Translations under genes and position numbers: made by a program
The notes under the pieces: model-generated
What the model was told of the DNA's origin: nothing
Databases searched by the model: none
The model's input: only the letters and a program-made list of their open reading frames with translations
Source: Candidatus Moraniibacteriota bacterium
Lineage (GTDB): Bacteria > Patescibacteriota > Minisyncoccia > Moranbacterales > UBA1568
Length of the DNA stretch: 64,000 nt
Direction of reading: 5' to 3'
Assembly (NCBI GenBank): GCA_013334245.1
Contig: JAAXXZ010000003.1
Span: 2 to 64,001 of the forward strand
Shown here: piece by piece, positions 3,460-52,179 of the stretch
How positions within the stretch are numbered: the first letter of the stretch is position 1
Layout: each line of letters starts with the position of its first letter

Positions 3460-3593
3460 GGATATCTGAATCTTGTTGTTAATTGAAATACTATTACTCC
3501 AGAAAGTCTGGAGATGTCACAGTAGCATAATGAGGCAAAACTGTCAAATATAAGACAGTGGCCAGGATAAGGGTAAAAGTGACCGATTTTCGA

Positions 3594-3620
3594 TTAGCAC
3601 TCAGACTTGACGAGTGCTAA
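3594..3620 (+). promoter_or_regulatory. CIRCE operator (HrcA binding site) upstream of hrcA
   Basis: Perfect consensus TTAGCACTC-N9-GAGTGCTAA (ttagcactc agacttgac gagtgctaa). Confidence 0.92.
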
Positions 3621-3635
3621 TCAAGCATTTATACT
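3607..3635 (+). promoter_or_regulatory. sigma70-type promoter overlapping CIRCE (-35 TTGACG, 17-nt spacer, -10 TATACT)
   Basis: ttgacg at 3607-3612 (inside the CIRCE right half), 17 nt, tatact at 3630-3635. Same architecture as the dnaK promoter at 6071-6099. Confidence 0.7.
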
Positions 3636-3755
3636 GTATCTGATGAAGCTGCGTAAGCTGCTAAAGCCTCTTTAGCTTCAGAAGCTTCCCTGATCCCACT
3701 CCCGTCTAACACCTTTTGAAGCTCATGCAGCTTCTGAAGCTCTCGAAGCTCCCAT

Positions 3756-4518: not shown

Positions 4519-5415
4519 ATGCCGAAACACAAGGAGACAACGGAGGAGCCGAATTTCCGGTTCGAACTGTCTGCGAAGGCGGTCGTCGTCGGACCCGACG
4601 GGAAAGTCCTGATTCTGACCCGCTCCAAGCATGAGACGAGCGCGCAGGGGAAACGGGATTTGCCCGGAGGGAGCGTGGATTCGGGGGAAACGGTGGAGGA
4701 GGCGGTCCGGCGAGAAATCATGGAGGAAGCCGGTCTTTCCGTGACGGGCATCGCTCCGCTTCCGGTCTATCGACATACGAAGACGGGTGAAAGCGAACTG
4801 CAGCGGGTTCGGTTCGTAGCGTTCTCCGATTCGAACGATGTGACGCTTGATCCGATGGAGCATTCCGAGTTCGAATGGCTCACCCCCGACGAGGCGATTG
4901 CCAAGCTGTCTGACAAGGGATTCGAAGCGGATAAGCGAGAGTCGGTCATGCGGGCCAAGGAGTATATGGAGCTGCAGGATTCCCTTGGGGGATGGAAGCG
5001 GTGCCTGGCGGACTTTGATAACTACAAGAAGCGGCAGGAGGCTTCGCAGAAAGAGATGGGGCAGTATCTGGTGGAGCGGCTCCTGAACGACCTGGTTCCG
5101 GTACTCGACAATTTCCATGCGGCGGCGTCCCATGTTCCGGAAGAATCGAAAGACAATCCCTGGGTCGTTGGTATCGGGTATATCGAAAAGCAGCTCGAGG
5201 ATACGCTTGCCCAGCACGGGGTTCGCGTCATCGAGGTGAAAGAGGGTGATGCGTTCGATCCGAGCCGGCACGAGGCTTTGAGCGACAGCTCGACAGAGGC
5301 GGAAGAAGGGGAGGAAGGGGACGAACCGAAGGGGCACGTGATCGCCAAAGTCCTGCAAAACGGATACATGATAGGAGATAAAGTCGTCCGGGCGGCGAAG
5401 GTAGCCGTAAAGTAG
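4519..5415 (+). CDS. grpE: GrpE nucleotide exchange factor with an N-terminal Nudix hydrolase domain (Nudix-GrpE fusion)
   Basis: 298 aa. Residues about 1-150 carry a full Nudix box GSVDSGETVEEAVRREIMEEAGL (G-x5-E-x7-REU-x-EE-x-GU). Residues about 150-298 are canonical GrpE (ADFDNYKKR, VLDNFHAAA, DPSRHEAL, GYMIGDKVVRAAKVAV). Single uninterrupted frame. Confidence 0.85.
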   Translation: MPKHKETTEEPNFRFELSAKAVVVGPDGKVLILTRSKHETSAQGKRDLPGGSVDSGETVEEAVRREIMEEAGLSVTGIAPLPVYRHTKTGESELQRVRFVAFSDSNDVTLDPMEHSEFEWLTPDEAIAKLSDKGFEADKRESVMRAKEYMELQDSLGGWKRCLADFDNYKKRQEASQKEMGQYLVERLLNDLVPVLDNFHAAASHVPEESKDNPWVVGIGYIEKQLEDTLAQHGVRVIEVKEGDAFDPSRHEALSDSSTEAEEGEEGDEPKGHVIAKVLQNGYMIGDKVVRAAKVAVK

Positions 5416-5530: not shown

Positions 5531-5650
5531 GTCCCATCTTGATATGGGACGTCCCCCTTTTTCAAAGGTGGAAATCGGTGGTCGTCGACGTTTACGGTGC
5601 ATCTCCCTTTTGTAAAGGAAATATACGGTAGTCCGGGGGAGAGATATGTA
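5531..5650 (+). repeat. repeat family 1, copy C (two hairpins, degenerate tail)
   Basis: gtcccatcttgatatgggac hairpin, ccccctttttcaaaggtgg hairpin, then ctcccttttgtaaaggaaatatacggtagtccgggggagagat. Confidence 0.5.
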
Positions 5651-5681: not shown

Positions 5682-6014
5682 ATGATCACCTACGAGGATT
5701 TCGAGAAGGTGGATATACGGATCGGGACGGTGACGGCCGCCGAGGAGTTTCCCGAGGCGCGGAAGCCTGCCTACAGGCTGACGATCGATTTCGGTCCGGA
5801 TGTTGGCATCAAGAGGTCATCCGTGCAGATTACGAAACGGTATGCGAAGGACGAGCTGGTTGGGAGGCAGGTGATGGGGGTCGTGAACTTCCCGCCGAAG
5901 CAGATAGGCCCGTTCATTTCCGAAGTGCTGACGCTGGGGTTTTCGGACGAGAACGGGGAAGTCGTGCTGGCCGTTCCGGACAAGCCGGTCCCGAACGGAA
6001 AGAACATGTTTTGA
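5682..6014 (+). CDS. csaA: CsaA-like protein (tRNA-binding/EMAP fold), putative export chaperone
   Basis: 110 aa, same size as B. subtilis CsaA. Motifs DFEKVDIRIGTV and GRQVMGVVNFPPKQIG are typical of the Trbp111/CsaA tRNA-binding domain. Sits inside the chaperone operon. Confidence 0.65.
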   Translation: MITYEDFEKVDIRIGTVTAAEEFPEARKPAYRLTIDFGPDVGIKRSSVQITKRYAKDELVGRQVMGVVNFPPKQIGPFISEVLTLGFSDENGEVVLAVPDKPVPNGKNMF

Positions 6015-6057
6015 ACGCGGCGTTGATATGAAGTGTTTACAAAGCCTTATCACGTGA

Positions 6058-6084
6058 TTAGCACTCTCACTTGACGAGTGCTAA
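6058..6084 (+). promoter_or_regulatory. second CIRCE operator, upstream of dnaK
   Basis: ttagcactc tcacttgac gagtgctaa, a perfect TTAGCACTC-N9-GAGTGCTAA. Confidence 0.92.
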
Positions 6085-6099
6085 GACAAAATCTATAAT
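6071..6099 (+). promoter_or_regulatory. sigma70-type promoter for dnaK (-35 TTGACG, 17 nt, -10 TATAAT)
   Basis: ttgacg 6071-6076, 17-nt spacer, tataat 6094-6099. The -35 lies inside the CIRCE right half. Confidence 0.75.
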
Positions 6100-6113
6100 G
6101 AATTCGTACGTAC

Positions 6114-6420
6114 GGTATGGCTCCCCGCAAAGCTTCCGAAGTTGGTCGGAGAATATACTCCGCCACTGTCACGGAAACGCCTGCGGCTTAGCCGGAAGAT
6201 AAAGAGTAATCGATAATAAGAAGCTCGCGGGGTGCTCATATTTGTAGCATTTCGCGGACTCAGGAAGAAAGGTATGGCTCCCCGCAAAGCTTCCGAACTC
6301 GGTGAGAGAATATACTTCACCATTGTCACGGAAGCGCCTACGGCTTAGCCGGAAGATAAAGAGTAATCGATAATAAGAAGCTCGCGGGGTGCTCATATTC
6401 GTAGCATTTCGCGGACTCAA
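6114..6420 (+). repeat. tandem duplication (2 x about 157 bp) forming the dnaK 5-prime leader. Each unit carries a 24-codon uORF.
   Basis: Unit 1 6114-6270 and unit 2 6271-about 6419 are about 90% identical. The uORFs are atg 6117..tag 6191 and atg 6274..tag 6348 (MAPRKASE...). Copy 2 is preceded by aggaagaaagg. Confidence 0.8.
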
Positions 6421-8354
6421 TGACGAATATGGCAAAGATACTCGGAATTGATCTCGGGACGACGAACTCGGCGATGGCTATCGTCGAAGGCGGAAGCCCG
6501 TCGATCGTGGAAAACAAGGAAGGCAACCGGACGACCCCGTCCATGGTGGCCATTTCCAAGACGGGCGAACGCCTGGTCGGACTCCTGGCCAAGCGGCAGG
6601 CGGTCACGAACCCGGGCGACACGCTCTTCTCGATCAAACGGCTCATCGGACGCCACTTCAATGACGAGGAAGTGCAGCGTGACCTGAAGACCCTGCCGTA
6701 CAAGATCATCCAGGCGGGTGAGGGGACGAAGATCGTCATGGGCGGCAAGGAATACACCCCGCAGGAAATCTCGGGAATGATTCTCGGCAAGCTCAAGGCC
6801 GATGCGGAAGAGAAGCTCGGCGAGAAGATCACCGAAGCGGTCATCACCGTTCCGGCATACTTCGACGATTCCCAGCGCAAGGCGACGATGGAGGCCGGCG
6901 AGATCGCGGGCCTCAATGTGCGCCGCATCATCAATGAGCCGACGGCGGCCGCGCTCGCGTACGGGTTCAACAAGAAGAAGGACGAGAAGATCGCGGTCTA
7001 TGACCTCGGTGGCGGTACGTTCGACATCTCGATCCTCGAGGTGGCCGAAGACACCGTCGAGGTGAAGTCCACCAACGGCGACACGCACTTGGGAGGTGAC
7101 GACTTCGACCAGCGCATCATGCACTGGATCCTCGACGAGTTCAAGAAGCAGGAAGCCATCGACCTCAGTAAAGACCCGCTCGCGCTCCAGCGTATCAAGG
7201 AAGCGGCCGAAAAGGCGAAGATCGAACTCTCGACCGCGCAGGAGTCCGAAATCAATCAGCCGTTCATCACGAGCGGTGCCGACGGACCGAAGCACCTCGT
7301 CATGAAGCTCACCCGGGCCAAGCTCGAAGAGATCGTGCATGACCTCGTGGAAGCGACCCTCGTGCCGGTCAAGAAGGCACTTGCCGATGCGAAGCTCGAT
7401 GCCAAGGATATCAACGAGGTGGTGCTCGTCGGCGGTATGACGCGCATGCCGCTCGTGTTGGCGACCGTGGAGAAATTCTTCGGCAAGAAACCGAATATCT
7501 CGGTCAATCCGGACGAGGTTGTCGCGATGGGTGCGGCGATCCAGGGCGGCGTGCTCGAAGGGTCGGTCAAGGACGTCTTGCTCCTCGATGTCACCCCGCT
7601 CACGCTCGGTATCGAGACCATGGGCGGCGTGCGCACCGCGCTCATCGAACGCAATACGACCATCCCGGCGTCCAAGTCGCAGACCTTCTCGACCGCGGCG
7701 GACAATCAGCCATCCGTCGAGATCCACGTCTTGCAGGGCGAGCGCGAGATGGCCGCGGACAACAAGTCCCTCGGACGGTTTATCCTCGACGGCATCCCGC
7801 CGGCGCCGCGCGGCATCCCGCAGGTCGAAGTGACCTTCGATATCGACGCCTCGGGCATTCTCTCCGTCACGGCCAAGGACAAGGCGACCAACAAGAGCCA
7901 GTCCATCCGTATCGAGGCCTCTACCGGTCTCAAGGACGAGGAGATCGAGCGCATGAAGAAGGATGCCGAACTCCATGCCGAGGAGGACAAGCACAAGAAG
8001 GAACTCGTCGAGGCGCGCAATATCGCCGACACGCTCTCCTACACGACGGCCAAGGCGATAAAGGATGCGGGCGACAAACTGACCGAGGACGAGAAGAAGC
8101 CGGTCGAAGAAGCCATCGCCGAGCTCGATAAGGTCAAGAACGGCGACGACCTTGAGGCCATCAAGAAGGCGAGCGAAACCCTCTCCGAAGCGGCACAGAA
8201 GATCGGCGAGAAACTCTATGCTGCGGCTCAGGCTGCCAACGAACAACCGACAACTGACAACTCACAACAGGGAAGCGGAACATCGGATTCGGAAGGAGCG
8301 AAGGACGCCGAAGTGGACGATAGCGCCCCGGCAGGTGAGGAGGAAAAGAAGTAG
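6420..8354 (+). CDS. dnaK: molecular chaperone DnaK (Hsp70)
   Basis: 644 aa with [21 protein letters not shown] and other canonical Hsp70 motifs. Acidic C-terminal tail ending EEKK. Confidence 0.97.
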
Positions 8355-8363
8355 GCGTGTACT

Positions 8364-8408
8364 AAGAGCGAGGATTCATTTCCTCGCTCTTATAATTAAT
8401 TGTTTTTT
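8364..8408 (+). terminator. intrinsic terminator after dnaK
   Basis: Perfect 11-bp stem aagagcgagga/tcctcgctctt (8364-8374/8381-8391), loop ttcatt, then an AT/T-rich tract (ttgtttttt). No dnaJ follows. Confidence 0.8.
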
Positions 8409-8410
8409 GT

Positions 8411-9475
8411 ATGGCATTCGCACCAGTTCCAAGAGAGTCAAAAGAACAGATAAATAAGGCTGGAGCATCTCTTGTGAGTAATCCCAATGATAAAGTGGCG
8501 CTTGACTTAGCAAATAGATGGAGGGCATGTCACGCTTATCCTATCAACACTTTTAATGCAACATTAAGAATTAAATCTAAGGCTTTTAATGAATCAGTGA
8601 TTGTTGCGCAACGTTTGAAGCGCATGCCAACGATTGTTGACAAATTGAAAAGATATCCATCCATGAAACTTGCCCGGATGCAAGATATCGGCGGATTGAG
8701 AGCTGTTTTGACTTCAACAAAGTGCGTGTATGAATTGGCGTCATCATACAAAGATACTCGATTTAGGCATGAACTTGTAAACGAAAAGGATTATATTAAA
8801 GAACCGCGAGATGAAGATGGATATAGAAGTATACATTTGATTTTTAAATATAAGGGAGCAAATAGTATTGCTAACAAGTACGATGGACTATTATTGGAAC
8901 TACAGATTCGAACTAAGTTACAACATATTTGGGCGACTGCAGTCGAAACCATGGGAACCTTTCTTGGCCAGGCTTTAAAAGCACGTCTTGGCGATAAAGA
9001 GTGGCAAGATTTTTTTGCTCTTGTATCGTCAGCGTTTGCTATTTCTGAAAGAATGCCCGTTCTTCCACGGCATCGGGAGTTGTCTAAAGAAGATATATAC
9101 AGAGCAATTCAAAAGGCTAATGAGGAACTCGGCGTGTTGGAAAGAATAAAGGGATATGCAGTAGCTGTTGAGGTTATTAGCAATAGACCAGACTCTTCAA
9201 GGAGAGGACATTCATATCATCTGGTGGTTCTGAATTCGGATGCAAGGAGCGTGCAAGTTAAGTCATATAAAAAGGGAGCTGTAAAACAAGCACTGGAGGA
9301 TTATTCTAATATCGAAAATCGAGCTTTAAATGGAGAAAAGATTGAAGCGGTTTTGGTTTCTGCTGGCGGGCCGCTAGCAGTGCTTCGACAAGCTTACCCA
9401 AACTTCTTCCTAGATATTAAAGATTTCGTCGGAAAAATCGAGGATATTGTTAGAAAGGCAAAAAACTTAAAATAA
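8411..9475 (+). CDS. RelA/SpoT-domain nucleotidyltransferase (small alarmone synthetase-like, toxSAS/CapRel-like) with about 150-aa C-terminal extension
   Basis: 354 aa. Synthetase-domain motifs RMQDIGGLRAV (D-x-G-x-R), DGYRSIHLIF (GY-S-H) and ELQIRTKLQHIWA (E-QIRT). The gene sits in an AT-rich island (about 8395-9650) immediately after the dnaK terminator. Confidence 0.8.
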   Translation: MAFAPVPRESKEQINKAGASLVSNPNDKVALDLANRWRACHAYPINTFNATLRIKSKAFNESVIVAQRLKRMPTIVDKLKRYPSMKLARMQDIGGLRAVLTSTKCVYELASSYKDTRFRHELVNEKDYIKEPRDEDGYRSIHLIFKYKGANSIANKYDGLLLELQIRTKLQHIWATAVETMGTFLGQALKARLGDKEWQDFFALVSSAFAISERMPVLPRHRELSKEDIYRAIQKANEELGVLERIKGYAVAVEVISNRPDSSRRGHSYHLVVLNSDARSVQVKSYKKGAVKQALEDYSNIENRALNGEKIEAVLVSAGGPLAVLRQAYPNFFLDIKDFVGKIEDIVRKAKNLK

Positions 9476-9483
9476 AGAAGTGG

Positions 9484-9606
9484 GTCAGGTAGCTTTTTCA
9501 AAATACTACATATAGAATCTTACCGATACGAATGAAACGAGGTAGGGGAACGCGCTTGATGTTATTCTTTCTAGGCTGAAGAACGACCGCGACAAGGGAT
9601 ATGTTT
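9484..9606 (+). repeat. repeat family 4, copy 1: conserved about 120-bp element at the 3-prime end of an AT-rich cassette
   Basis: gtcaggtagctttttcaaaatactacatatagaatcttaccgatacgaatgaaacgaggtaggggaacgcgcttgatgttattctttctaggctgaagaacgaccgcgacaagggatatg. About 88% identical to 16707-16828. Confidence 0.8.
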
Positions 9607-9651
9607 TTTTGAGATTTTGCATACAATCGGCTTAGGTCGTAAGATGAACGC

Positions 9652-10458
9652 ATGGATATTCAGACCGTCTTCGATAAGGGTATAAAGCCAGTGAACGAGG
9701 ATTCGCTCTTGGTAGCGGATCCGATTTTTGGCGTGTTCGACGGCGTTTCCGTACTGGAACCTGGGGCGCCGCGAGAGGACGGGCTGACCGGAGCGGCTAT
9801 CGCTTCAAGAATCGCGAAGAATGTCTTCTCATCTAGGGATGGTGCCCTGGTCGAGTCGGCTCTTCAAGCGAATGACGCTATCCGAAAGGCGATGGAGGAG
9901 AATGGCATTGATTGGAAAAGAAAGACGGCACAATGGGCGACGACGGCGTCGGTTATCCGTATCGGGAACGGTTCGTTCGACTGGCTCCATATCGGGGACA
10001 GCGTCGTGATGGTGGTTATGAATGACGGATCCTGCAGGGTTCTTGGAAGCGGGCATGGGCAGGACCGGGAAATCTTGATCGAATGGAAAAAGCTTGCCGA
10101 TCAGGGGATTGAGAATATACGTGAGGCACTGTCGGACTCGATGTCCGCGGCGCGCAACGGTGAAGCTAATTATGGTGACCTGGACGGCGATCCTAATATA
10201 GAACGCTATCTGGAACATGGGACGGAGTCACTTGAAAATGTGCGTCACATTCTTCTCTTTACGGACGGACTCGTGATGCCGAAAGAAGATCCCGCATCAG
10301 ACGACGATTTACATCGCTTCGTCGATATGTTCGAGAAGGATACATTGGAAGGACTTCGTGACCATGTACGAACTCTCGAAGATGCCGATCCGAAATGCTG
10401 GAAGTACCCCCGATTCAAACAGCACGACGACATCGCTGCCGTCGCCATATCATTCTAA
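9652..10458 (+). CDS. PP2C-family (PPM) serine/threonine protein phosphatase
   Basis: 268 aa with FGVFDGVS, LHIGDSVV, LLFTDGLV and C-terminal DDIAAVAI, the conserved PPM metal-binding Asp motifs. Confidence 0.75.
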   Translation: MDIQTVFDKGIKPVNEDSLLVADPIFGVFDGVSVLEPGAPREDGLTGAAIASRIAKNVFSSRDGALVESALQANDAIRKAMEENGIDWKRKTAQWATTASVIRIGNGSFDWLHIGDSVVMVVMNDGSCRVLGSGHGQDREILIEWKKLADQGIENIREALSDSMSAARNGEANYGDLDGDPNIERYLEHGTESLENVRHILLFTDGLVMPKEDPASDDDLHRFVDMFEKDTLEGLRDHVRTLEDADPKCWKYPRFKQHDDIAAVAISF

Positions 10459-10988: not shown

Positions 10989-11048
10989 ACCCAGCCTGAA
11001 AAAGGTCAGGCATCTTTTCAAGAAGTAACGGCATAAAATCGAACTGAT

Positions 11049-12146
11049 ATGGATGAACCGAAGAAGGGGAATGCACTTGATAGCTTTCTTGCAGGACTGC
11101 GGAACGATATCACGACGAGGGATATGTCTGTCGCGACGGTTTTGAAGTGGGTGGTATTGCTTGTGGTGGCGTATGTCGTCTTGCCGCTTACAATCGTGGC
11201 GGCGCTGTGGTATATCTGGGCCAAGACATCGTGGTCGAAGTCGAAGCGGATACTGGCGACGTTGGCCGTCATTGTGGTCGCGATATGGATTGTTTCTCTT
11301 GGTGCCAACCGAAAGGCGGATGTGCCGGATACGGCGGGATCGCAGCAGCCGGCCACACAGACGCAATCAAATGTGGAGGCTCCGCAGGTTCAGGTTCCCG
11401 TAGTACAGGAAGAGGAAAAAGTGACGGAGCCCGTTTCGGAGGCTGATGACCTGTATAAGGTCGTTGGCGTGACGGACGGGGATACGATCAAGGTGGATAT
11501 CGGGGGGAATATCGAGACGATCAGACTCATCGGCATGGATACGCCGGAAACGGTGGACCCGCGCAAGCCGGTGCAGTGCTTCGGTAAGGAATCGTCCGAC
11601 AAGGCGCGCGAGATGCTCGGCGGGAAGAAGGTCCGTCTGGAAGCGGATCCGACCCAGGGCGAGCGGGACACGTACAATCGTCTGCTTCGATACGTCTATT
11701 TCGAGGACGGCACATCGTTCGACAAGTGGATGATCGCGGAAGGGTATGCCCACGAGTATACCTATCAGAGCAAGCCGTATAAATACCAGGCTGAATATCA
11801 GGCCGCCGAGAAGTCGGCACGCGAGGGGAAAAAAGGCCTGTGGGCCGACGATACCTGCAAAGGGGTTACGGTAACGGCTGCGGTGACCGCCGCCACGACA
11901 GCTGTCGTTGGGAATGCGCTTACCGCCGACACGTCAAAAACAACGTCCTCGGTATCGAATGGTTCCACGACCACGACTCCATCTGCCGGTTCAACGACAT
12001 CGACTTCCGGTGGTGTGGTCAAGAAAAGCTCGACCGGCATATGCCACGCTCCCGGAACGACCTACTACAACCAGACCAAAAGCTTCATAGCTTTCGACAC
12101 CCTCGACGCCTGCCTTGCGAGCGGGGGGCGGCTTCCGAAGAGATAA
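11049..12146 (+). CDS. membrane-anchored thermonuclease (SNase / micrococcal nuclease homologue) with Ser/Thr-rich linker and C-terminal Cys-containing domain
   Basis: 365 aa. N-terminal TM helix, then VTDGDTIKV...IRLIGMDTPE...CFGKES...YNRLLRYVY...WMIAEGYA (SNase OB-fold catalytic motifs). C-terminal TAAVTAATTAVV/STTTT tract and ICHAPGTTYY...LDACLASGGRLPK. Confidence 0.85.
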   Translation: MDEPKKGNALDSFLAGLRNDITTRDMSVATVLKWVVLLVVAYVVLPLTIVAALWYIWAKTSWSKSKRILATLAVIVVAIWIVSLGANRKADVPDTAGSQQPATQTQSNVEAPQVQVPVVQEEEKVTEPVSEADDLYKVVGVTDGDTIKVDIGGNIETIRLIGMDTPETVDPRKPVQCFGKESSDKAREMLGGKKVRLEADPTQGERDTYNRLLRYVYFEDGTSFDKWMIAEGYAHEYTYQSKPYKYQAEYQAAEKSAREGKKGLWADDTCKGVTVTAAVTAATTAVVGNALTADTSKTTSSVSNGSTTTTPSAGSTTSTSGGVVKKSSTGICHAPGTTYYNQTKSFIAFDTLDACLASGGRLPKR

Positions 12147-15216: not shown

Positions 15217-15350
15217 CGTCTTTGCGAGGACGTATTCGTCCGTGGCAATCCAGGGCTCAAGAATCGGGCATGGACCGCCACGGCCCGCCCTTTGCGAAGG
15301 GCAGGACTCGCGGAGACGGATGGAACGGATCCATGGAAATGGTATAAGAG
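15217..15350 (+). repeat. repeat family 3, copy 1 (candidate structured element: GTCTTTGCGAG ... GGCAATCCA ... CTGGACCGCCACG-hairpin-GACTCGCGGAGAC ... GAAATGGTAT)
   Basis: The central hairpin is gcccgccctttgcgaagggcaggac. The copies at 21378-21512 and 30345-30470 have different hairpin sequences with complementarity preserved. Confidence 0.6.
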
Positions 15351-15356
15351 AAGCAT

Positions 15357-16064
15357 ATGCAAACGGCAAATGTGGAGCTCATGCGGTCAGCTCGGGAGTC
15401 ATTGAAGGGAAAGTGGGGATTGGCTATCGGGGTCACTATCGTCTATTGCATCATCACCGGGGGCCTGCAAAGCATCAAGCAGGTCGGCCCGCTCGTAGCT
15501 ATGCTTGTGTCCGGTCCGCTCGCCGGGGGAATGGCGATATTCACATTGGCACTCGTACGGAATCAGGAGGCGAAGTTCGAGCAGCTCTTTGACGGCTTCA
15601 AATCGTTCGCGACGTATTTCGTCGCCTATCTCCTGATGCTCGTCTTCATACTTCTCTGGTCGCTTCTGCTTATCGTCCCGGGAATCATCGCGGCGATTTC
15701 GTATTCGATGACCTATTTCATCATCGCGGACAATCCGACGGTTTCGCCTTCCGACGCGCTCAAGCGGAGCAAAGAAATGATGCAGGGCAACAAGGGGAAG
15801 TTCTTCGGTCTCCAGTTACGATTCCTTGGTTGGGCGATCCTGTGCGTTTTGACCGCGGGTATCGGTTTTATCTGGCTTATCCCGTATATTCAGGTCAGCG
15901 TCGCCAAGTTCTATGAGGATTTGAAAGGAACCACCGCCGCGCCAAGTGCCCCAGCTGAGCCGGTCGCCGCGTCGCCGACGGCACCCGTATCTGATGCGCC
16001 GGTAACACAAGTGAAGGACGCCAAAGTGGACGACGGTACTCCGGTGAGTGAGGAAAAGAAGTAA
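15357..16064 (+). CDS. integral membrane protein, DUF975-like
   Basis: 235 aa. N-terminal MRSARESLKGKWGLAIGVTIVY followed by several TM segments matches the DUF975 pattern from memory. C-terminal Ala/Pro-rich tail ending EEKK. Confidence 0.65.
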   Translation: MQTANVELMRSARESLKGKWGLAIGVTIVYCIITGGLQSIKQVGPLVAMLVSGPLAGGMAIFTLALVRNQEAKFEQLFDGFKSFATYFVAYLLMLVFILLWSLLLIVPGIIAAISYSMTYFIIADNPTVSPSDALKRSKEMMQGNKGKFFGLQLRFLGWAILCVLTAGIGFIWLIPYIQVSVAKFYEDLKGTTAAPSAPAEPVAASPTAPVSDAPVTQVKDAKVDDGTPVSEEKK

Positions 16065-16100: not shown

Positions 16101-16176
16101 CTAATCGGGAACAAGAGCCAGAAAAATAAATAATATGTAATTATCGTATTGAAGCAGAAATGAATATTTCAAATTT

Positions 16177-16695
16177 ATGGAAAAAAAATTAGCGAAAAAG
16201 GAAACACTCGTAATAAGCGCGTGGATTTGTGCAGGAAAATCATATTTGACGAAGAAATATACGAATATAATTGAGCTACCGAGCGGCGACTACAAGTATA
16301 TTTTGACGGACGAACAAAAGGCCGTTGTGAACAAGGAAAGCCTGAAATCGACAAAAAGGGAAATTAATCCCGCTTGGCCAAGAAATTATTATGATGCGAT
16401 TCTTACAGAAGTAAAAAACGGAAAATATGACATTATTCTTATCGCACCATGTATGCCTTTCTCAGAGATGCGGGACTATGGCATAAAATTCGTATTGGCG
16501 TATCCGGATCCGACGTGCAAGGAAGAGTATATTCAACGGGCAAGAAAGAGAGGTGCGAATGAAGAATTTGTAAAAAGAATCGAGACAAACATTCAGAGCG
16601 ATTTCGAAGATTTCGTAAACCAGCCGAACGAAAAGCTCATCATGCAACCGGGAGAATACTTAGAAGACGCCCTCATCAGAGCCGGTATATTATAG
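16177..16695 (+). CDS. small P-loop protein (putative kinase/NTPase) in an AT-rich cassette
   Basis: 172 aa with Walker-A-like SAWICAGKSY near the N-terminus and hydrophobic-Asp DIILIAP (Walker-B-like). The AT-rich island is about 16105-17100. Function unknown. Confidence 0.5.
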   Translation: MEKKLAKKETLVISAWICAGKSYLTKKYTNIIELPSGDYKYILTDEQKAVVNKESLKSTKREINPAWPRNYYDAILTEVKNGKYDIILIAPCMPFSEMRDYGIKFVLAYPDPTCKEEYIQRARKRGANEEFVKRIETNIQSDFEDFVNQPNEKLIMQPGEYLEDALIRAGIL

Positions 16696-16706
16696 CCGGT
16701 AAAGGT

Positions 16707-16828
16707 GTCAGGTACCTTTTTTCAAAATACTGCATAGAGAATCTCACCGATACGAATGAATCGAAGCGGGGAATGCGCTTGATGTTATTCTTTCCGGCTA
16801 GAAGAACGACCGCGACGAGGGATATGTC
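16707..16828 (+). repeat. repeat family 4, copy 2 (starts with terminator-like hairpin aaaggt-gtcagg-tacctttttt)
   Basis: gtcaggtaccttttttcaaaatactgcatagagaatctcaccgatacgaatgaatcgaagcggggaatgcgcttgatgttattctttccggctagaagaacgaccgcgacgagggatatg, followed by a tandem ccctttcgattgga x2. Confidence 0.8.
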
Positions 16829-17110
16829 CCTTTCGATTGGACCCTTTCGATTGGAAATGCTATCGAAAAAACGTAACATAATAATGCGGTCGTCAGTTGG
16901 TGTTACAATATATGCACCGGGTGACGCGAAGTGACGGCCGTCCGCTCATGTCACCTGAAAAAGAGCAGAGCCAAAAGCCGGATACATTTATTGAACATTT
17001 TTTTACGAAGACTCACGAAAAAATGTCGAAAAAGATTTAATACAAAGCTGCTCGACTCCGCCCTCTGGTCTTTGGGTGAAATCATCAGACCATAACGCTG
17101 TCTATCTATT

Positions 17111-21377: not shown

Positions 21378-21512
21378 CGGTCTTTGCGAGACATACATAT
21401 GTTCATAGGTGTGTCGTGGCAATCCATTCGTATCCATTAGGAATCGGATACGGGGGCATATTTCTGGACCGCCACGCCCCGCGCTTTGCAAAGAGCGGGA
21501 CTCGCGGAGACA
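21378..21512 (+). repeat. repeat family 3, copy 2
   Basis: ggtctttgcgagac...gtcgtggcaatccattcg...ctggaccgccacgccccgcgctttgcaaagagcgggactcgcggagac. Confidence 0.6.
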
Positions 21513-21587
21513 GAGTAGTGTTGCGATGATACGCATGTTCGGATGAATTAGAGCCTATCTCAAAAATACGACAAGCACGGTTTTGTT

Positions 21588-43110: not shown

Positions 43111-43217
43111 GTCATGTCCGTCGCCGGACATGACACCCCCTTTTTCAAAGGGGGAAACCTGATAGGCCGCTTTCCTACTCTGGGAAAGGGAGTACCGAGT
43201 CAAAGAGGGGAGGGATT
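43111..43217 (+). repeat. repeat family 1, copy D
   Basis: gtccgtcgccggac hairpin, ccccctttttcaaaggggg hairpin, then ctttcctactctgggaaagggagtaccgagtcaaagaggggagggatttg. Confidence 0.6.
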
Positions 43218-43242
43218 TGAAATGATCATGTAACCGTCAATC

Positions 43243-49811: not shown

Positions 49812-50975
49812 TTATGAGACGACCGAGTCGTCGAATTCCTCGATGTCACGTGATTTCTTTATCGAGAGCGAGACGGATTCCTTGTCCGGAATCTTCGCCG
49901 CCTCGACCGCCTTTCGTGCGGAGACGGGGAGTACGGGGAGAATCCCCCGTAACGCTGTCCCATCAATCTTCCTTATTTCATCCCATTTGTCAAGGGGTAC
50001 GAGGACCTCTCGGAGCTTGTCTTCGTCGTATTTCCAGGTCCTTCGGATCGATTTTCCGACTATTCCGGAAGATCCGAATACCCGGTCGACCTGTTTCCCT
50101 TCCATGTATCGGAGAAGCGTTTCCTGGAGCGCGGCGAAGCGCGTCTTGTCGCTCTTCATCCTGTCGCGGAGCGCGAGGATCTCTTCGATCGAGGTCTGCG
50201 CCTCTTCGTCTTCGACGGCCGTTTCTTCCTGGAACTTATGTTTCCAGAACGGACACAGTCGCTGAAATCCGCAGTAGTCGCAGAGTGGGGAGAGTATGGG
50301 ATCGAATTTTCCATCCTCGATGTTCCGTATCGTTTCGAGGAACTGGCGATCGAGATCTTCGAGCTGTTCCCTGGTCCGCGTCGAAGACAGTTTCACTCCG
50401 TGGCGAAGGTAGTAGAGGCTTACCGTGATGCGGTCAAGATGCGCGGTCTCCTTCGGATATCGGTCAAGAAATGCGCGGAGATAAATGGAGAGCTGGAGGT
50501 CGTTGTCGACCTTCTCCTGTGAGGGCATCTTGCGTGCCGTCTTATAGTCGATAATCTCGAAGCCGTCCGGAGTCGCATCAATACGGTCGATGATCCCGGC
50601 GATGACATGTTTGCCGTTTTCCTGGTCTCCGATCTCGATCGCGAAGCGGCTTTCCAGGTCGACGATGGTGAAATCGGCGGGGTTGTTCTTCGCGTAGTAG
50701 TCCGAAATGATCTTGACACCCTGCGTGAACGCGGCGCGTTCCTCGGTCTCGTCCGCGTAGGCGTCCCCGTTCCACGACTGCGAAAACTGGTTGAGCGCGG
50801 CATCGAGCGACGGCTGCATGGGTGCCGGCGTGTGAATGTATCGCAGTACGGAGTGCACAATGGTACCGAAGATCTGTTCCTTGGACTTTGGTTCCTTTAT
50901 CTTGTCGATCGCTTGGAAGCGATACTTCAGCGGACAATTCTTGTAGGCCTCGAGTCCCGAGTAGGATATTCTCAT
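49812..50975 (-). CDS. PD-(D/E)XK nuclease superfamily protein (RecB/Cas4-like) with C-terminal Cys cluster
   Basis: 387 aa. The N-terminus YKNCPLKYRF and IIDYKT (nuclease motif III-like), then C..CGFQRLC (4-Cys arrangement typical of Fe-S RecB-family nuclease domains). Confidence 0.6.
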   Translation of the reverse strand: MRISYSGLEAYKNCPLKYRFQAIDKIKEPKSKEQIFGTIVHSVLRYIHTPAPMQPSLDAALNQFSQSWNGDAYADETEERAAFTQGVKIISDYYAKNNPADFTIVDLESRFAIEIGDQENGKHVIAGIIDRIDATPDGFEIIDYKTARKMPSQEKVDNDLQLSIYLRAFLDRYPKETAHLDRITVSLYYLRHGVKLSSTRTREQLEDLDRQFLETIRNIEDGKFDPILSPLCDYCGFQRLCPFWKHKFQEETAVEDEEAQTSIEEILALRDRMKSDKTRFAALQETLLRYMEGKQVDRVFGSSGIVGKSIRRTWKYDEDKLREVLVPLDKWDEIRKIDGTALRGILPVLPVSARKAVEAAKIPDKESVSLSIKKSRDIEEFDDSVVS

Positions 50976-51071
50976 AGTCGTTCTTTAAAAATGGCAGTTT
51001 AGACCTGATTATATCATGAAAGCAAATTCTTCACTGCGGAGCCATTACGGTATACACTTTGATCATAAATA

Positions 51072-51722
51072 ATGTGTTGGACATGTATGAAGAGTGGAAA
51101 ATGGACCGTGGATAATGTCGAAGATGGTTTAAATAGGTACTTTAAGGAGTTCGGTCGTTTTCCTACTGCACAGGAGATTGATAAAGTTAGTTACCTGCCC
51201 TCGTCACGACAGATTCAGCGGCGCTGGGGCGGGTTAGAGGAGCTAAGACGCCTACTCGGTCACAAGGATATTAATTTTGGTAAAGGTGTCCATAGAAGTA
51301 GGATTGCTCATGAATCCAATGTCAAGGGGAGGAGCGGGGAAGGATCCGTAAGGAAACTATTATGTGAGAGATTTCACGAAGAATTTGTTCATATCGAACG
51401 ACCGATAGATAAAAACAGAAAATTACGTGCAGATTTTTACGTGTACAGTCCCGAGGGAAATTTCTGCGTCGACGTATTTTCTACGGATACATTTCATGAC
51501 CTAGTCACACATATAGGCATAAAGTCCAGAAAATATGCCCATTATAGCGAGAAACTATTTTTTCTCTTAATTTCAGATCAGCTTTCCCAATGTGATATTG
51601 ACCTTTTGATTCAGAGAAAGAAAGTCCCTTTGTCTTCAAATGTATCGCTGGTAACGTTAGAATCGTTCAAGCAAATAATAAGAATTATGCCAAGTTATGA
51701 TTTCGTAGAGCAAAAATTGTAA
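51072..51722 (+). CDS. hypothetical protein in an AT-rich island, possibly a nuclease-fold protein
   Basis: 216 aa in a region of markedly lower GC (about 51000-52150). ERFHEEFVHIERPIDKNRKLRADFYVYSPEGNFCVDV loosely resembles E...D/E-x-K restriction-endonuclease-like cores. Speculative. Confidence 0.35.
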   Translation: MCWTCMKSGKWTVDNVEDGLNRYFKEFGRFPTAQEIDKVSYLPSSRQIQRRWGGLEELRRLLGHKDINFGKGVHRSRIAHESNVKGRSGEGSVRKLLCERFHEEFVHIERPIDKNRKLRADFYVYSPEGNFCVDVFSTDTFHDLVTHIGIKSRKYAHYSEKLFFLLISDQLSQCDIDLLIQRKKVPLSSNVSLVTLESFKQIIRIMPSYDFVEQKL

Positions 51723-52179
51723 ATGCGGGAGGGGAGTGGTACTTATGAGTAAAAGATAGGAATAGAAATAATTTCGCTATTCAATCGTATGACAATGACG
51801 GTAGATAGTGTCAGGCGAGCTAGAGTCTACCGACTGCGGGCGCGATGGCATCTCATTTATTCTATTATAAAATTGATATTCATAAATAATATTGCTTGTG
51901 CCGTATTTATTCATGACATGTCGTACTATGTAACTTATGCGACATGCTAAAAGAAAATTTTATACGGCACCAGGCCGCTTCGTTGTCCGACTCTTTGTGT
52001 TTTAAGATTCCTGGGTGTACGATAGCACATGAAAAGTAACCCTGCAAGATTATGTCAAGAGGTCGATATAGAAGCATGGAACCCTGGCGCTGGTCCTTCG
52101 GTGAAGTTGTCGCCTATATAGTGATGGCCGGCGCGTTCTTCGCTTGGGTTTTCTTACATCAAATCTGACATCGAAACAA

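Follow-up and report, generated by a model that had tools for sequence, protein, structure and literature searches.

A CapRel-like fused toxin-antitoxin candidate behind dnaK in a Moranbacteria genome

Behind the dnaK gene of a Candidatus Moraniibacteriota bacterium (NCBI GenBank assembly GCA_013334245.1, contig JAAXXZ010000003.1) stands a single AT-rich gene that encodes a protein with the catalytic core of a RelA/SpoT-like small alarmone synthetase (SAS). The stretch of DNA that was analysed, from here on called the window, is 64,000 nucleotides (nt) long and covers positions 2 to 64,001 of the forward strand of that contig; the gene is the open reading frame (ORF) at 8411-9475. The question that this locus raises is what such a gene is: a housekeeping synthetase, a toxin, or a piece of mobile DNA. 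Our answer, to which we give a probability of roughly 0.7, is that it codes for a toxin and antitoxin of the CapRel type fused into one polypeptide, which by homology to CapRelSJ46 and CapRelEbc would work as they do. The reasons for this reading are the homology over the full length, a predicted structure best matched by that of CapRelSJ46 (7ZTB), the conservation of the key residues, and the absence of any gene family that recurs beside it.

The GC content of the window as a whole is 0.53, and over ~8350-9700 it dips to 0.37-0.43, between the 3' part of dnaK (0.58-0.65) and the downstream gene (0.51-0.57). The dip is occupied by one ORF, on the plus strand, of 354 amino acids (aa). Its GC content at third codon positions (GC3) is 0.315, the lowest among the 73 greedy-called ORFs of the window (mean 0.605, z = -2.8; dnaK itself has 0.82), which means that such a dip is no general trait of the genome. 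A direct reading of the translation gives the motifs DIGGLR, GYRSIH and ELQIRT. The sole Pfam match is RelA_SpoT (aa 67-176, 5e-16); the Pfam scan found no HD, TGS or ACT domain, and the last 180 residues had no match at all. No separate antitoxin-like ORF was seen in 8355-9650, where the other ORFs of at least 50 aa overlap the gene or sit inside the shared element described below. The original prediction, made from the sequence of the window, had described a sharp drop in base composition after dnaK, a single gene with the three motifs, no hydrolase, TGS or ACT domain and no separate antitoxin ORF, and all of this stands. The exact protein is already deposited as 'RelA/SpoT domain-containing protein [Candidatus Moranbacteria bacterium]'.

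Likeness of the protein to CapRelSJ46

The sequence searches point in one direction. With phmmer against the PDB sequences, the CapRelSJ46 chains 7ZTB and 9ERV were matched over the full length (aa 10-339 against 16-362, E 5e-30, 28% identity), and a profile of 32 homologues extended the match to aa 8-346 against 14-368 of 7ZTB at E 7.5e-49. In both kinds of search the only full-length PDB relatives were CapRel chains. The protein also matches the PADLOC phage-defence candidate PDC-S33 (8.2e-117, aa 6-349 against positions 5-343 of a model of 349) and, again over its full length, phrog_4773 (3.1e-99, aa 8-349). The best match in a phage collection was the CapRel gene of Salmonella phage SJ46 itself, and homologues on 106 plasmids form a continuum of 29-40% identity.

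An alternative reading is that the gene is a housekeeping small alarmone synthetase, making (p)ppGpp for the reduced genome of a member of the Candidate Phyla Radiation (CPR), with an ordinary regulatory domain at the C-terminal end and a stress role, not one in defence, reflected in the vertically inherited position behind dnaK. The intact catalytic motifs are what such an enzyme would have, but the matches to RelQ and RelP were confined to aa ~64-181 in the PDB sequence search (~1e-7 to 1e-10), and with the 32-homologue profile RelQ reached 4e-16 over the catalytic core only. The NCBIfam equivalog for YjbM (NF053588) gave 53.8 bits against a cutoff of 320, for aa 64-178 only. Thus neither an above-cutoff equivalog match nor a single-domain protein of ~210 aa was found; the protein has 354 aa and two extra regions, and the full-length alignment to RelP or RelQ that the original prediction had named as contrary evidence did not appear.

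The predicted structure agrees with the sequence searches. The AlphaFold (AF2) model, built on the homologue alignment, has a mean predicted local distance difference test score (pLDDT) of 83 and a predicted template modelling score (pTM) of 0.80. Foldseek against the PDB placed 7ztb_A, 7ztb_B and 9erv_A as its top three (E ~1e-19 to 5e-20, 354-359 columns, 27-28% identity, TM-score 0.66-0.69), while RelQ and RelP came about twelve orders of magnitude behind, with E ~1e-8 over ~190-250 columns. At that TM-score the root-mean-square deviation between the model and the CapRelSJ46 crystal form is ~9 Å, which would fit domains that are placed differently relative to each other in the model than in the open crystal form.

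The domain layout is listed in Table 1. Whether the C-terminal ~150 aa take an antitoxin-like fold had been left as a question when the locus was first described, and the model answers with a pseudo-zinc-finger topology: three strands form a sheet, strands 2 and 3 are joined by a helix, and short helices lead on to a terminal one. The antitoxin domain published for CapRelSJ46 is a cysteine-free pseudo-zinc-finger in which a three-stranded sheet has a helix inserted between strands, with a helical extension at the C-terminal end (PMC9712102). The topology predicted for the window protein is the same, and its translation has no Cys after residue 105. This pseudo-zinc-finger-like domain is presumed to be both the antitoxin and the sensor of the trigger. 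The linker in front of it varies more than any other part of the protein across the family, with a mean identity of 0.37 in an alignment of 252 sequences (250 full-length relatives, CapRelSJ46 and the window protein).

The same alignment was used to compare the residues that matter in CapRelSJ46. The numbering of the 7ZTB chain is that of the paper, with R116 in the motif DIGGCR and Y155 in GYSGIH. In CapRelSJ46, Y155 is the catalytic G-loop Tyr, R79 and R116 are the Arg residues that coordinate adenine and ATP, and substitutions at the hinge and interface positions give constitutive toxicity (PMC9712102). Eight of these positions are identical in the window protein (A77=A66, R79=R68, R116=R97, Y155=Y138, V338=V314, L339=L315, A351=A328 and Y352=Y329), and two are substituted (A341 to S317 and Y355 to F332). 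Y138 and R68 are invariant in the family, as are D92, G95, H142, E163, Q165 and R167, and R97 is kept in 251 of the 252 sequences. The hinge position Y329 and the interface positions A66, V314, L315, A328 and 317 are each at least 88% conserved, with Y329 present in 245 sequences and Ser as the majority residue at 317. At the fourth position of the hinge 141 sequences have Phe and 106 have Tyr, and the wider hinge motif is therefore YXX[Y/F], of which the window protein has the Phe form; AYPNFF is invariant in alignment A1. The conservation of an autoinhibitory toxin-antitoxin hinge and of its interface residues speaks against a housekeeping enzyme. The proposal of a fused toxic small alarmone synthetase (toxSAS) of CapRel type, which had been made as a candidate only, thus gains from the end-to-end match to CapRelSJ46, the model, the residues and the lack of a partner gene.

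Table 1. Features of the locus and of the related sequences in the window, with the basis of each call.
Feature	Position	Strand	Basis
dnaK 3' tail	8297..8354	+	homologous to the DUF975-gene tail 16010-16064
11-bp hairpin AAGAGCGAGGA-TTCATT-TCCTCGCTCTT	8364..8391	+	between dnaK stop and SAS start; read from the sequence
CapRel-type fused toxSAS gene (candidate), 354 aa	8411..9475	+	ORF; PDC-S33, phrog_4773, and 7ZTB sequence, profile and Foldseek matches
toxSYNTH (toxin) domain, aa 1-200	8411..9010	+	RelA_SpoT at nt 8609-8938; R68, R97 (DIGGLR), Y138 (GYRSIH), ELQIRT 162-168
Helical linker or 'anchor', aa 201-262	9011..9196	+	AF2 helices 195-212, 226-240, 242-257
Pseudo-zinc-finger-like domain, aa 263-320	9197..9370	+	AF2 β267-275, β280-287, α288-306, β311-317; aligns to 7ZTB
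Hinge Y329-P-N-F332	9395..9406	+	equivalent of the CapRelSJ46 autoinhibitory YXXY (Y352/Y355); alignment
C-terminal helix, aa 337-351	9419-9463	+	after the hinge
121-nt element	9484..9604	+	~88% to 16707-16827; more distantly to 11005-11125
Second AT-rich gene, 172 aa, Walker-A-like AWICAGKS	16177..16695	+	phrog_4182 match; between homologous left tail and right 121-nt copy

The site behind dnaK and the shared 121-nt element

The low GC content had led to the view that the gene lies in a foreign island or cassette. Taken to mean a mobile unit inserted recently, this view is not supported. An 86%-identical protein (P0002; L078-L082) and a 70%-identical one (P0003; L083) are encoded in the same arrangement on their contigs: the DnaK C-terminus …KDAEVEDKPADEEKK and its stop codon, an 11-bp hairpin, ~20 nt, and then ATGGC…. 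The hairpins of L078 and L083 carry paired changes in their arms (GCGAGGA/TCCTCGC as compared to GCGGAGG/CCTCCGC), and the C-terminal part of DnaK is 78% and 71% identical, in step with the identity of the SAS. For the two relatives the synonymous divergence (dS) is 1.1 and 2.0, which is saturated, and the ratio of nonsynonymous to synonymous divergence (dN/dS, ω) is 0.07 and 0.10. The SAS gene is under strong purifying selection, and its GC content is 0.38-0.40 beside a dnaK of 0.57-0.60 in all three lineages. Because of this synteny in two relatives, the dS above 1, the low dN/dS and the equally low GC, the gene is an old and selected resident of the site behind dnaK. Its low GC has not ameliorated and does not testify to a recent arrival; that it persists at a fixed housekeeping locus in spite of a saturated dS makes low GC an unreliable mark of recent transfer in this case. 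What varies at the locus lies downstream of the SAS gene, where the window has a PP2C gene and L079 has small membrane ORFs.

Within the protein, ω of the pseudo-zinc-finger is 0.07 in the comparison with the closest relative and 0.20 with the more distant one, and that of the core is 0.05, so that the pseudo-zinc-finger evolves somewhat faster than the core without any sign of positive selection. A sensor domain that is not hypervariable between close relatives, and a position that is syntenic in three lineages at such values of dS and dN/dS, are also what a housekeeping synthetase would show.

The hairpin between the two genes had been taken for the dnaK terminator, which is not supported: no U-tract adjoins it and a terminator scan made no intrinsic-terminator call. 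Co-transcription with dnaK, a heat-shock gene under control of the CIRCE element (controlling inverted repeat of chaperone expression), is thereby possible, and this too would suit a housekeeping enzyme with a stress role. A TATAAT is found at 8391-8396, 14 nt ahead of the ATG of the SAS gene, and no Shine-Dalgarno sequence is visible upstream of that ATG at 8411. Expression of the gene is probably low, a suggestion that we hold as speculative, because of the missing Shine-Dalgarno sequence, the AT-rich codons (GC3 0.32) and the hairpin without U-tract after dnaK.

The gene is followed by a 121-nt element that, as noted when the locus was first described, is shared with a second AT-rich gene: the copies at 9484-9604 and 16707-16827 are ~88% identical, and a 27-mer from the element has two matches in the window against 0 expected. 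The left flanks are homologous as well. The last 52 nt of dnaK are identical to the end of a DUF975 gene (16010-16061) at 39 of 52 positions (z = 7.7), and the next best segment in the window reaches 29. The DUF975 gene ends in …KDAKVDDGTPVSEEKK and a stop codon, and both tails are followed by a hairpin and then by an unrelated AT-rich gene. The product of the second gene matches only phrog_4182 (3e-24), a family of unknown function, and gave no Pfam, PADLOC or NCBIfam match. Two unrelated AT-rich genes between homologous flanks is thus a real pattern; one of the AT-rich loci may have been templated on the other.

One way to account for the pattern would be that the SAS gene travels as cargo in a small mobile cassette, with the dnaK-like tail and the hairpin as its left end, the 121-nt element as its right end or recombination site, and another cargo at 16105-16830. 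The unrelated cargoes between similar ends fit this picture, as does the precision of the right-hand boundary, since the homology starts 9 and 12 nt past the two stop codons and ends at the identical base in both copies. We nevertheless regard it as very unlikely. Relatives that differ in the sequence farther downstream still have the SAS gene behind dnaK, L079 has no element and L083 retains just its first ~35 nt, and the tail is native to DnaK in L078 and L083. The low-GC ORFs that were tested include no recombinase, nothing else that points to mobility was seen, and a metagenome scan with a degenerate 25-mer gave no further copy of the element, returning one unrelated high-GC contig (L084). 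The element itself has neither a significant fold nor a supported inverted-repeat structure, and nothing marks it as a recombination site or a structured RNA, against the original prediction that it is the end of a cassette.

The third and more distant copy (11005-11125, 62%) belongs to an ordinary gene, of which it is the 5' end: it covers the upstream or promoter region and the first ~25 codons of an SNase-domain membrane gene at 11049-12146, and this too speaks against a cassette. In the frame of that gene the close copies read …GNALDVILS(R/G)(L/stop)KNDRD(K/E)GYV… and are interrupted by an in-frame stop or a frameshift, the copy at 9484-9604 reading …GNALDVILSRLKNDRDKGYV with an in-frame stop. 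The element looks like a promoter-like stretch together with the decayed 5' coding stub of a paralogue.

Three other readings of the element were tried and rejected. A structured RNA or riboswitch was rejected on the folding, which compared to shuffled sequences gave no stable structure on either strand (z +1.4, +0.35, +1.3 and -0.3), on RNAalifold, which found weak pairs only, and on Rfam, where a scan of the whole window at gathering thresholds gave two tRNAs only and a scan of 5950-9800 at E <= 1, covering the 9484-9604 copy only, gave nothing. Two ORFs of 51 and 67 aa that cross the element on the minus strand have a stretch in common but fall out of frame at a 1-nt indel, as judged by eye, and are not a conserved protein. 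An integron-type cassette is not supported, given the synteny in relatives and the lack of a fold above shuffles, of a reported inverted repeat, and of a recombinase domain in the low-GC ORFs scanned, which are a subset of the window ORFs.

The motif GTCAGGTANNTTTTT, which opens the element, has eight matches in the window with at most two mismatches, as compared to 0.95 expected (2864, 9484, 10512 on the minus strand, 11005, 12997 minus, 16707, 19314 and 60064 minus). Four of these (9484, 11005, 16707 and 19314) are at a stop codon or within ~20 nt of one, and in L083, too, the motif stands after the SAS gene. Probably it is an intergenic signal typical of the lineage, and possibly a terminator or promoter signal.

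Upstream of the SAS gene, CIRCE-like inverted repeats TTAGCACTC-N9-GAGTGCTAA occur at 3592-3639 and 6056-6103, each followed by a TATAAT-like box and the second one upstream of dnaK, which suggests heat-shock control of the HrcA type. The dnaK leader between CIRCE and the start codon is filled by a tandem segment of 149 nt (6114-6262 and 6271-6419, 93% identical, with a period of 157 nt) that has no Rfam match at E <= 1. The ORF at 4519-5415 is an unusual fusion of an N-terminal NUDIX (1e-19) and a C-terminal GrpE domain (8e-34), and a small tRNA_bind-domain protein (5682-6014) is encoded between it and dnaK.

Elsewhere in the window, the cumulative GC skew peaks and reverses at ~50800-52100, where the GC content is 0.36-0.44 and a 216-aa ORF (51072-51722) could not be annotated; the region is possibly where replication ends or starts, or where the genes switch strand. 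Dispersed 50-nt repeats are found at 1870-1919, 5599-5648 and 43170-43219, with 60-78% identity to the reference copy, and at 15271-15320 and 21465-21514, which are 88% identical, GC-rich and contain an internal palindrome.

Distribution of the family and its gene neighbourhoods

The family comprises 1335 clusters at 50% identity with E <= 1e-30. Proteins that are ~60% identical to the window protein occur in Nitrospirales, Thermodesulfobacteriota, Planctomycetota, Chloroflexota, several Patescibacteria, Bacteroidota and archaea. The window gene thus belongs to a very large clade that is experimentally uncharacterised and known only as the PADLOC candidate PDC-S33. In our literature search we found no paper that mentions PDC-S33 and none that names both CapRel and Patescibacteria, and the gene would extend the fused CapRel immune sensor to the CPR (Moranbacteria).

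Neighbours were clustered all-against-all for a sample of 58 loci from more than 20 phyla. The commonest neighbour family is present at only five of them, so that a conserved partner or antitoxin gene was rejected, and this is what is expected of a self-contained fused system. The gene is on average 7 GC points below its flanks; it is more than 5 points lower at 40 of the 58 loci and more than 5 points higher at one.

Some of the relatives are found inside restriction-modification (R-M) operons. In L003 (6239-12927), L005 (6331-11273) and L007 (2512-7437) the CapRel-like gene has a type III Mod (PADLOC MTase_III, 1e-83) on one side and a type III Res-like helicase on the other, with DUF6119 after the helicase in L003, and in the type I locus L009 (5559-12367) the order is hsdR, NYN, hsdM, the CapRel-like gene and hsdS. 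These homologues are 61-64% identical to the window protein. In L019, L029 and L043 the gene is flanked by DNA methyltransferase or type IIG genes. By association only, the R-M embedding supports a role in defence for the family, and the embedding of such close homologues suggests a layered defence. The neighbours matched 433 PADLOC models as compared to 15 for control ORFs, which is a crude count of redundant models and not of genes, and this also suggests a defence context. An order of Mod, X and Res as a general rule was rejected, as it was seen in just three distinct loci, with one more locus of type I.

A general linkage of the family to dnaK was likewise rejected. Among 71 genome loci, dnaK was near the gene in L042 and L033 only, and no linkage is general outside the Moranbacteria clade; in L042 (Saccharibacteria) a release-factor gene lies between dnaK and the CapRel-like gene, and in L033 dnaK is 5 kb away.

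In about seven of ~65 genome loci (L054, L058, L059, L065, L067, L068 and L069) the CapRel-like gene is either truncated or broken up into two ORFs, which suggests frequent decay of the gene in some lineages.

The distribution bears on the housekeeping synthetase as well. A spread over bacteria and archaea at ~60% identity, a GC content that is more than 5 points under that of the flanks at most of the sampled loci, and homologues within R-M operons would fit a gene that moves horizontally and takes part in defence better than a housekeeping enzyme. Together with the matches limited to the catalytic core, they make the housekeeping alternative quite unlikely.

Proposed mechanism and known systems

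If the protein works as a CapRel, its mechanism can be pictured from what is described for the characterised members (PMC9712102, PMC13423816). In the resting state the C-terminal pseudo-zinc-finger would be folded back on the toxSYNTH domain, with the hinge Y329-P-N-F332 lodged between R68 and R97, where it would obstruct the ATP site. A phage protein made during infection, alone or together with a host factor, would then bind to the C-terminal domain and the protein would open. The opened toxSYNTH domain would move pyrophosphate from ATP onto the 3'-CCA ends of tRNAs, which could then no longer be charged; translation would halt and the infection would be aborted. It is by homology that we infer tRNA pyrophosphorylation, phage triggering, toxicity and defence for the window protein.

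It is conceivable that a fused toxSAS of this kind has another chemistry, the synthesis of (pp)pApp and depletion of ATP as in FaRel and Tas1. Both chemistries occur among toxSAS enzymes (PMC9712102, PMC11782079), and the acceptor pocket may be somewhat different from that of CapRelSJ46, since Q67 takes the place of the acceptor-site R78 in the window protein and in 243 of the 252 aligned sequences. The nearest characterised full-length relatives are, however, tRNA pyrophosphokinases (the title of 7ZTB is 'Salmonella tRNA pyrophosphokinase CapRel'), and PDB sequence and profile searches gave no FaRel or Tas1 chain at E <= 1, so that this chemistry seems rather improbable.

Several points weigh against the CapRel-type reading. 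The identity to the characterised CapRels is just 28-29%, and the second Tyr of the CapRelSJ46 hinge (Y355) is Phe in the window protein (F332). The sensor domain has not evolved at an accelerated rate between the two closest relatives (ω 0.07), unlike the pseudo-zinc-finger domain (pseudo-ZFD) of the enterobacterial CapRels, which is hypervariable. To stay at one housekeeping locus for a dS above 1 is unusual for a defence gene. Finally, the sequence leaves room for tRNA as the substrate as well as for ATP or GTP, with (pp)pApp or (p)ppGpp as the product.

A variant of the CapRel-type reading, which is unlikely, would account for the residence at dnaK. The protein would have been domesticated at the 3' end of the dnaK unit, as a brake on translation coupled to stress or to the chaperone, or as a guard that fires on hijacking of DnaK and GrpE by a phage, and not as a sensor of phage capsids that is freely exchanged, and the closest relatives in type I and type III R-M operons would be guards in the manner of PrrC. 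Transcription from the CIRCE-controlled dnaK would read through the conserved hairpin without U-tract, and the AT-rich codons would keep translation low. If this were true, the R-M-embedded relatives would add a second case, independent of PrrC, in which a latent toxin against tRNA is coupled to an R-M system.

Among the known systems, RelQ and RelP (YjbM and YwaC; 5DEC, 6EWZ) share with the window protein the RelA_SpoT nucleotidyltransferase core, aa ~64-181, and have no counterpart of aa 1-60 and 200-354. PrrC is an anticodon nuclease, a latent toxin that targets tRNA, embedded in the type Ic R-M locus EcoprrI. The likeness to PrrC is limited to homologues of the window protein, in the placing of a toxin gene within an R-M operon (L009 and L003, L005 and L007); the protein family and the chemistry are unrelated, and the window gene adjoins no R-M gene.

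The bicistronic systems PhRel/ATphRel of mycobacteriophage Phrann (gp29/gp30) and the actinobacterial CapRel/ATcapRel (PMC7229694) belong to the same toxSAS lineage, and the antitoxin that they encode separately has its homologue in the C-terminal domain of the fused forms (Jimmy et al. 2020, PMC7229694; PMC9712102). They consist of two genes, whereas the window has one ORF with no conserved small gene next to it. CapRelEbc of Enterobacter chengduensis has, by description, the same fused architecture, and serves here as a precedent for host-factor-dependent sensing only. CapRel homologues sense quite different triggers, in the case of CapRelEbc a phage protein in complex with the host FtsZ (PMC13423816).

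The closest known system is CapRelSJ46 of Salmonella phage SJ46 (7ZTB, 9ERV; PMC9712102). It is located on a prophage, and the window gene is chromosomal, beside housekeeping genes in a CPR bacterium. The two are just 28-29% identical, the hinge is YPNF and not YPNY, Ser replaces A341 and Gln replaces R78, and the sensor of the window clade is far more conserved, with an overall identity of ~60% across phyla and ~42% in the pseudo-ZFD (250 homologues). What the two have in common is a single ORF of ~350-370 aa, an N-terminal toxSYNTH domain in which the G-loop Tyr and the two ATP-binding Arg residues are conserved, the helical anchors, a Cys-free three-stranded pseudo-zinc-finger, and an AYPN[Y/F]F hinge followed by a helix.

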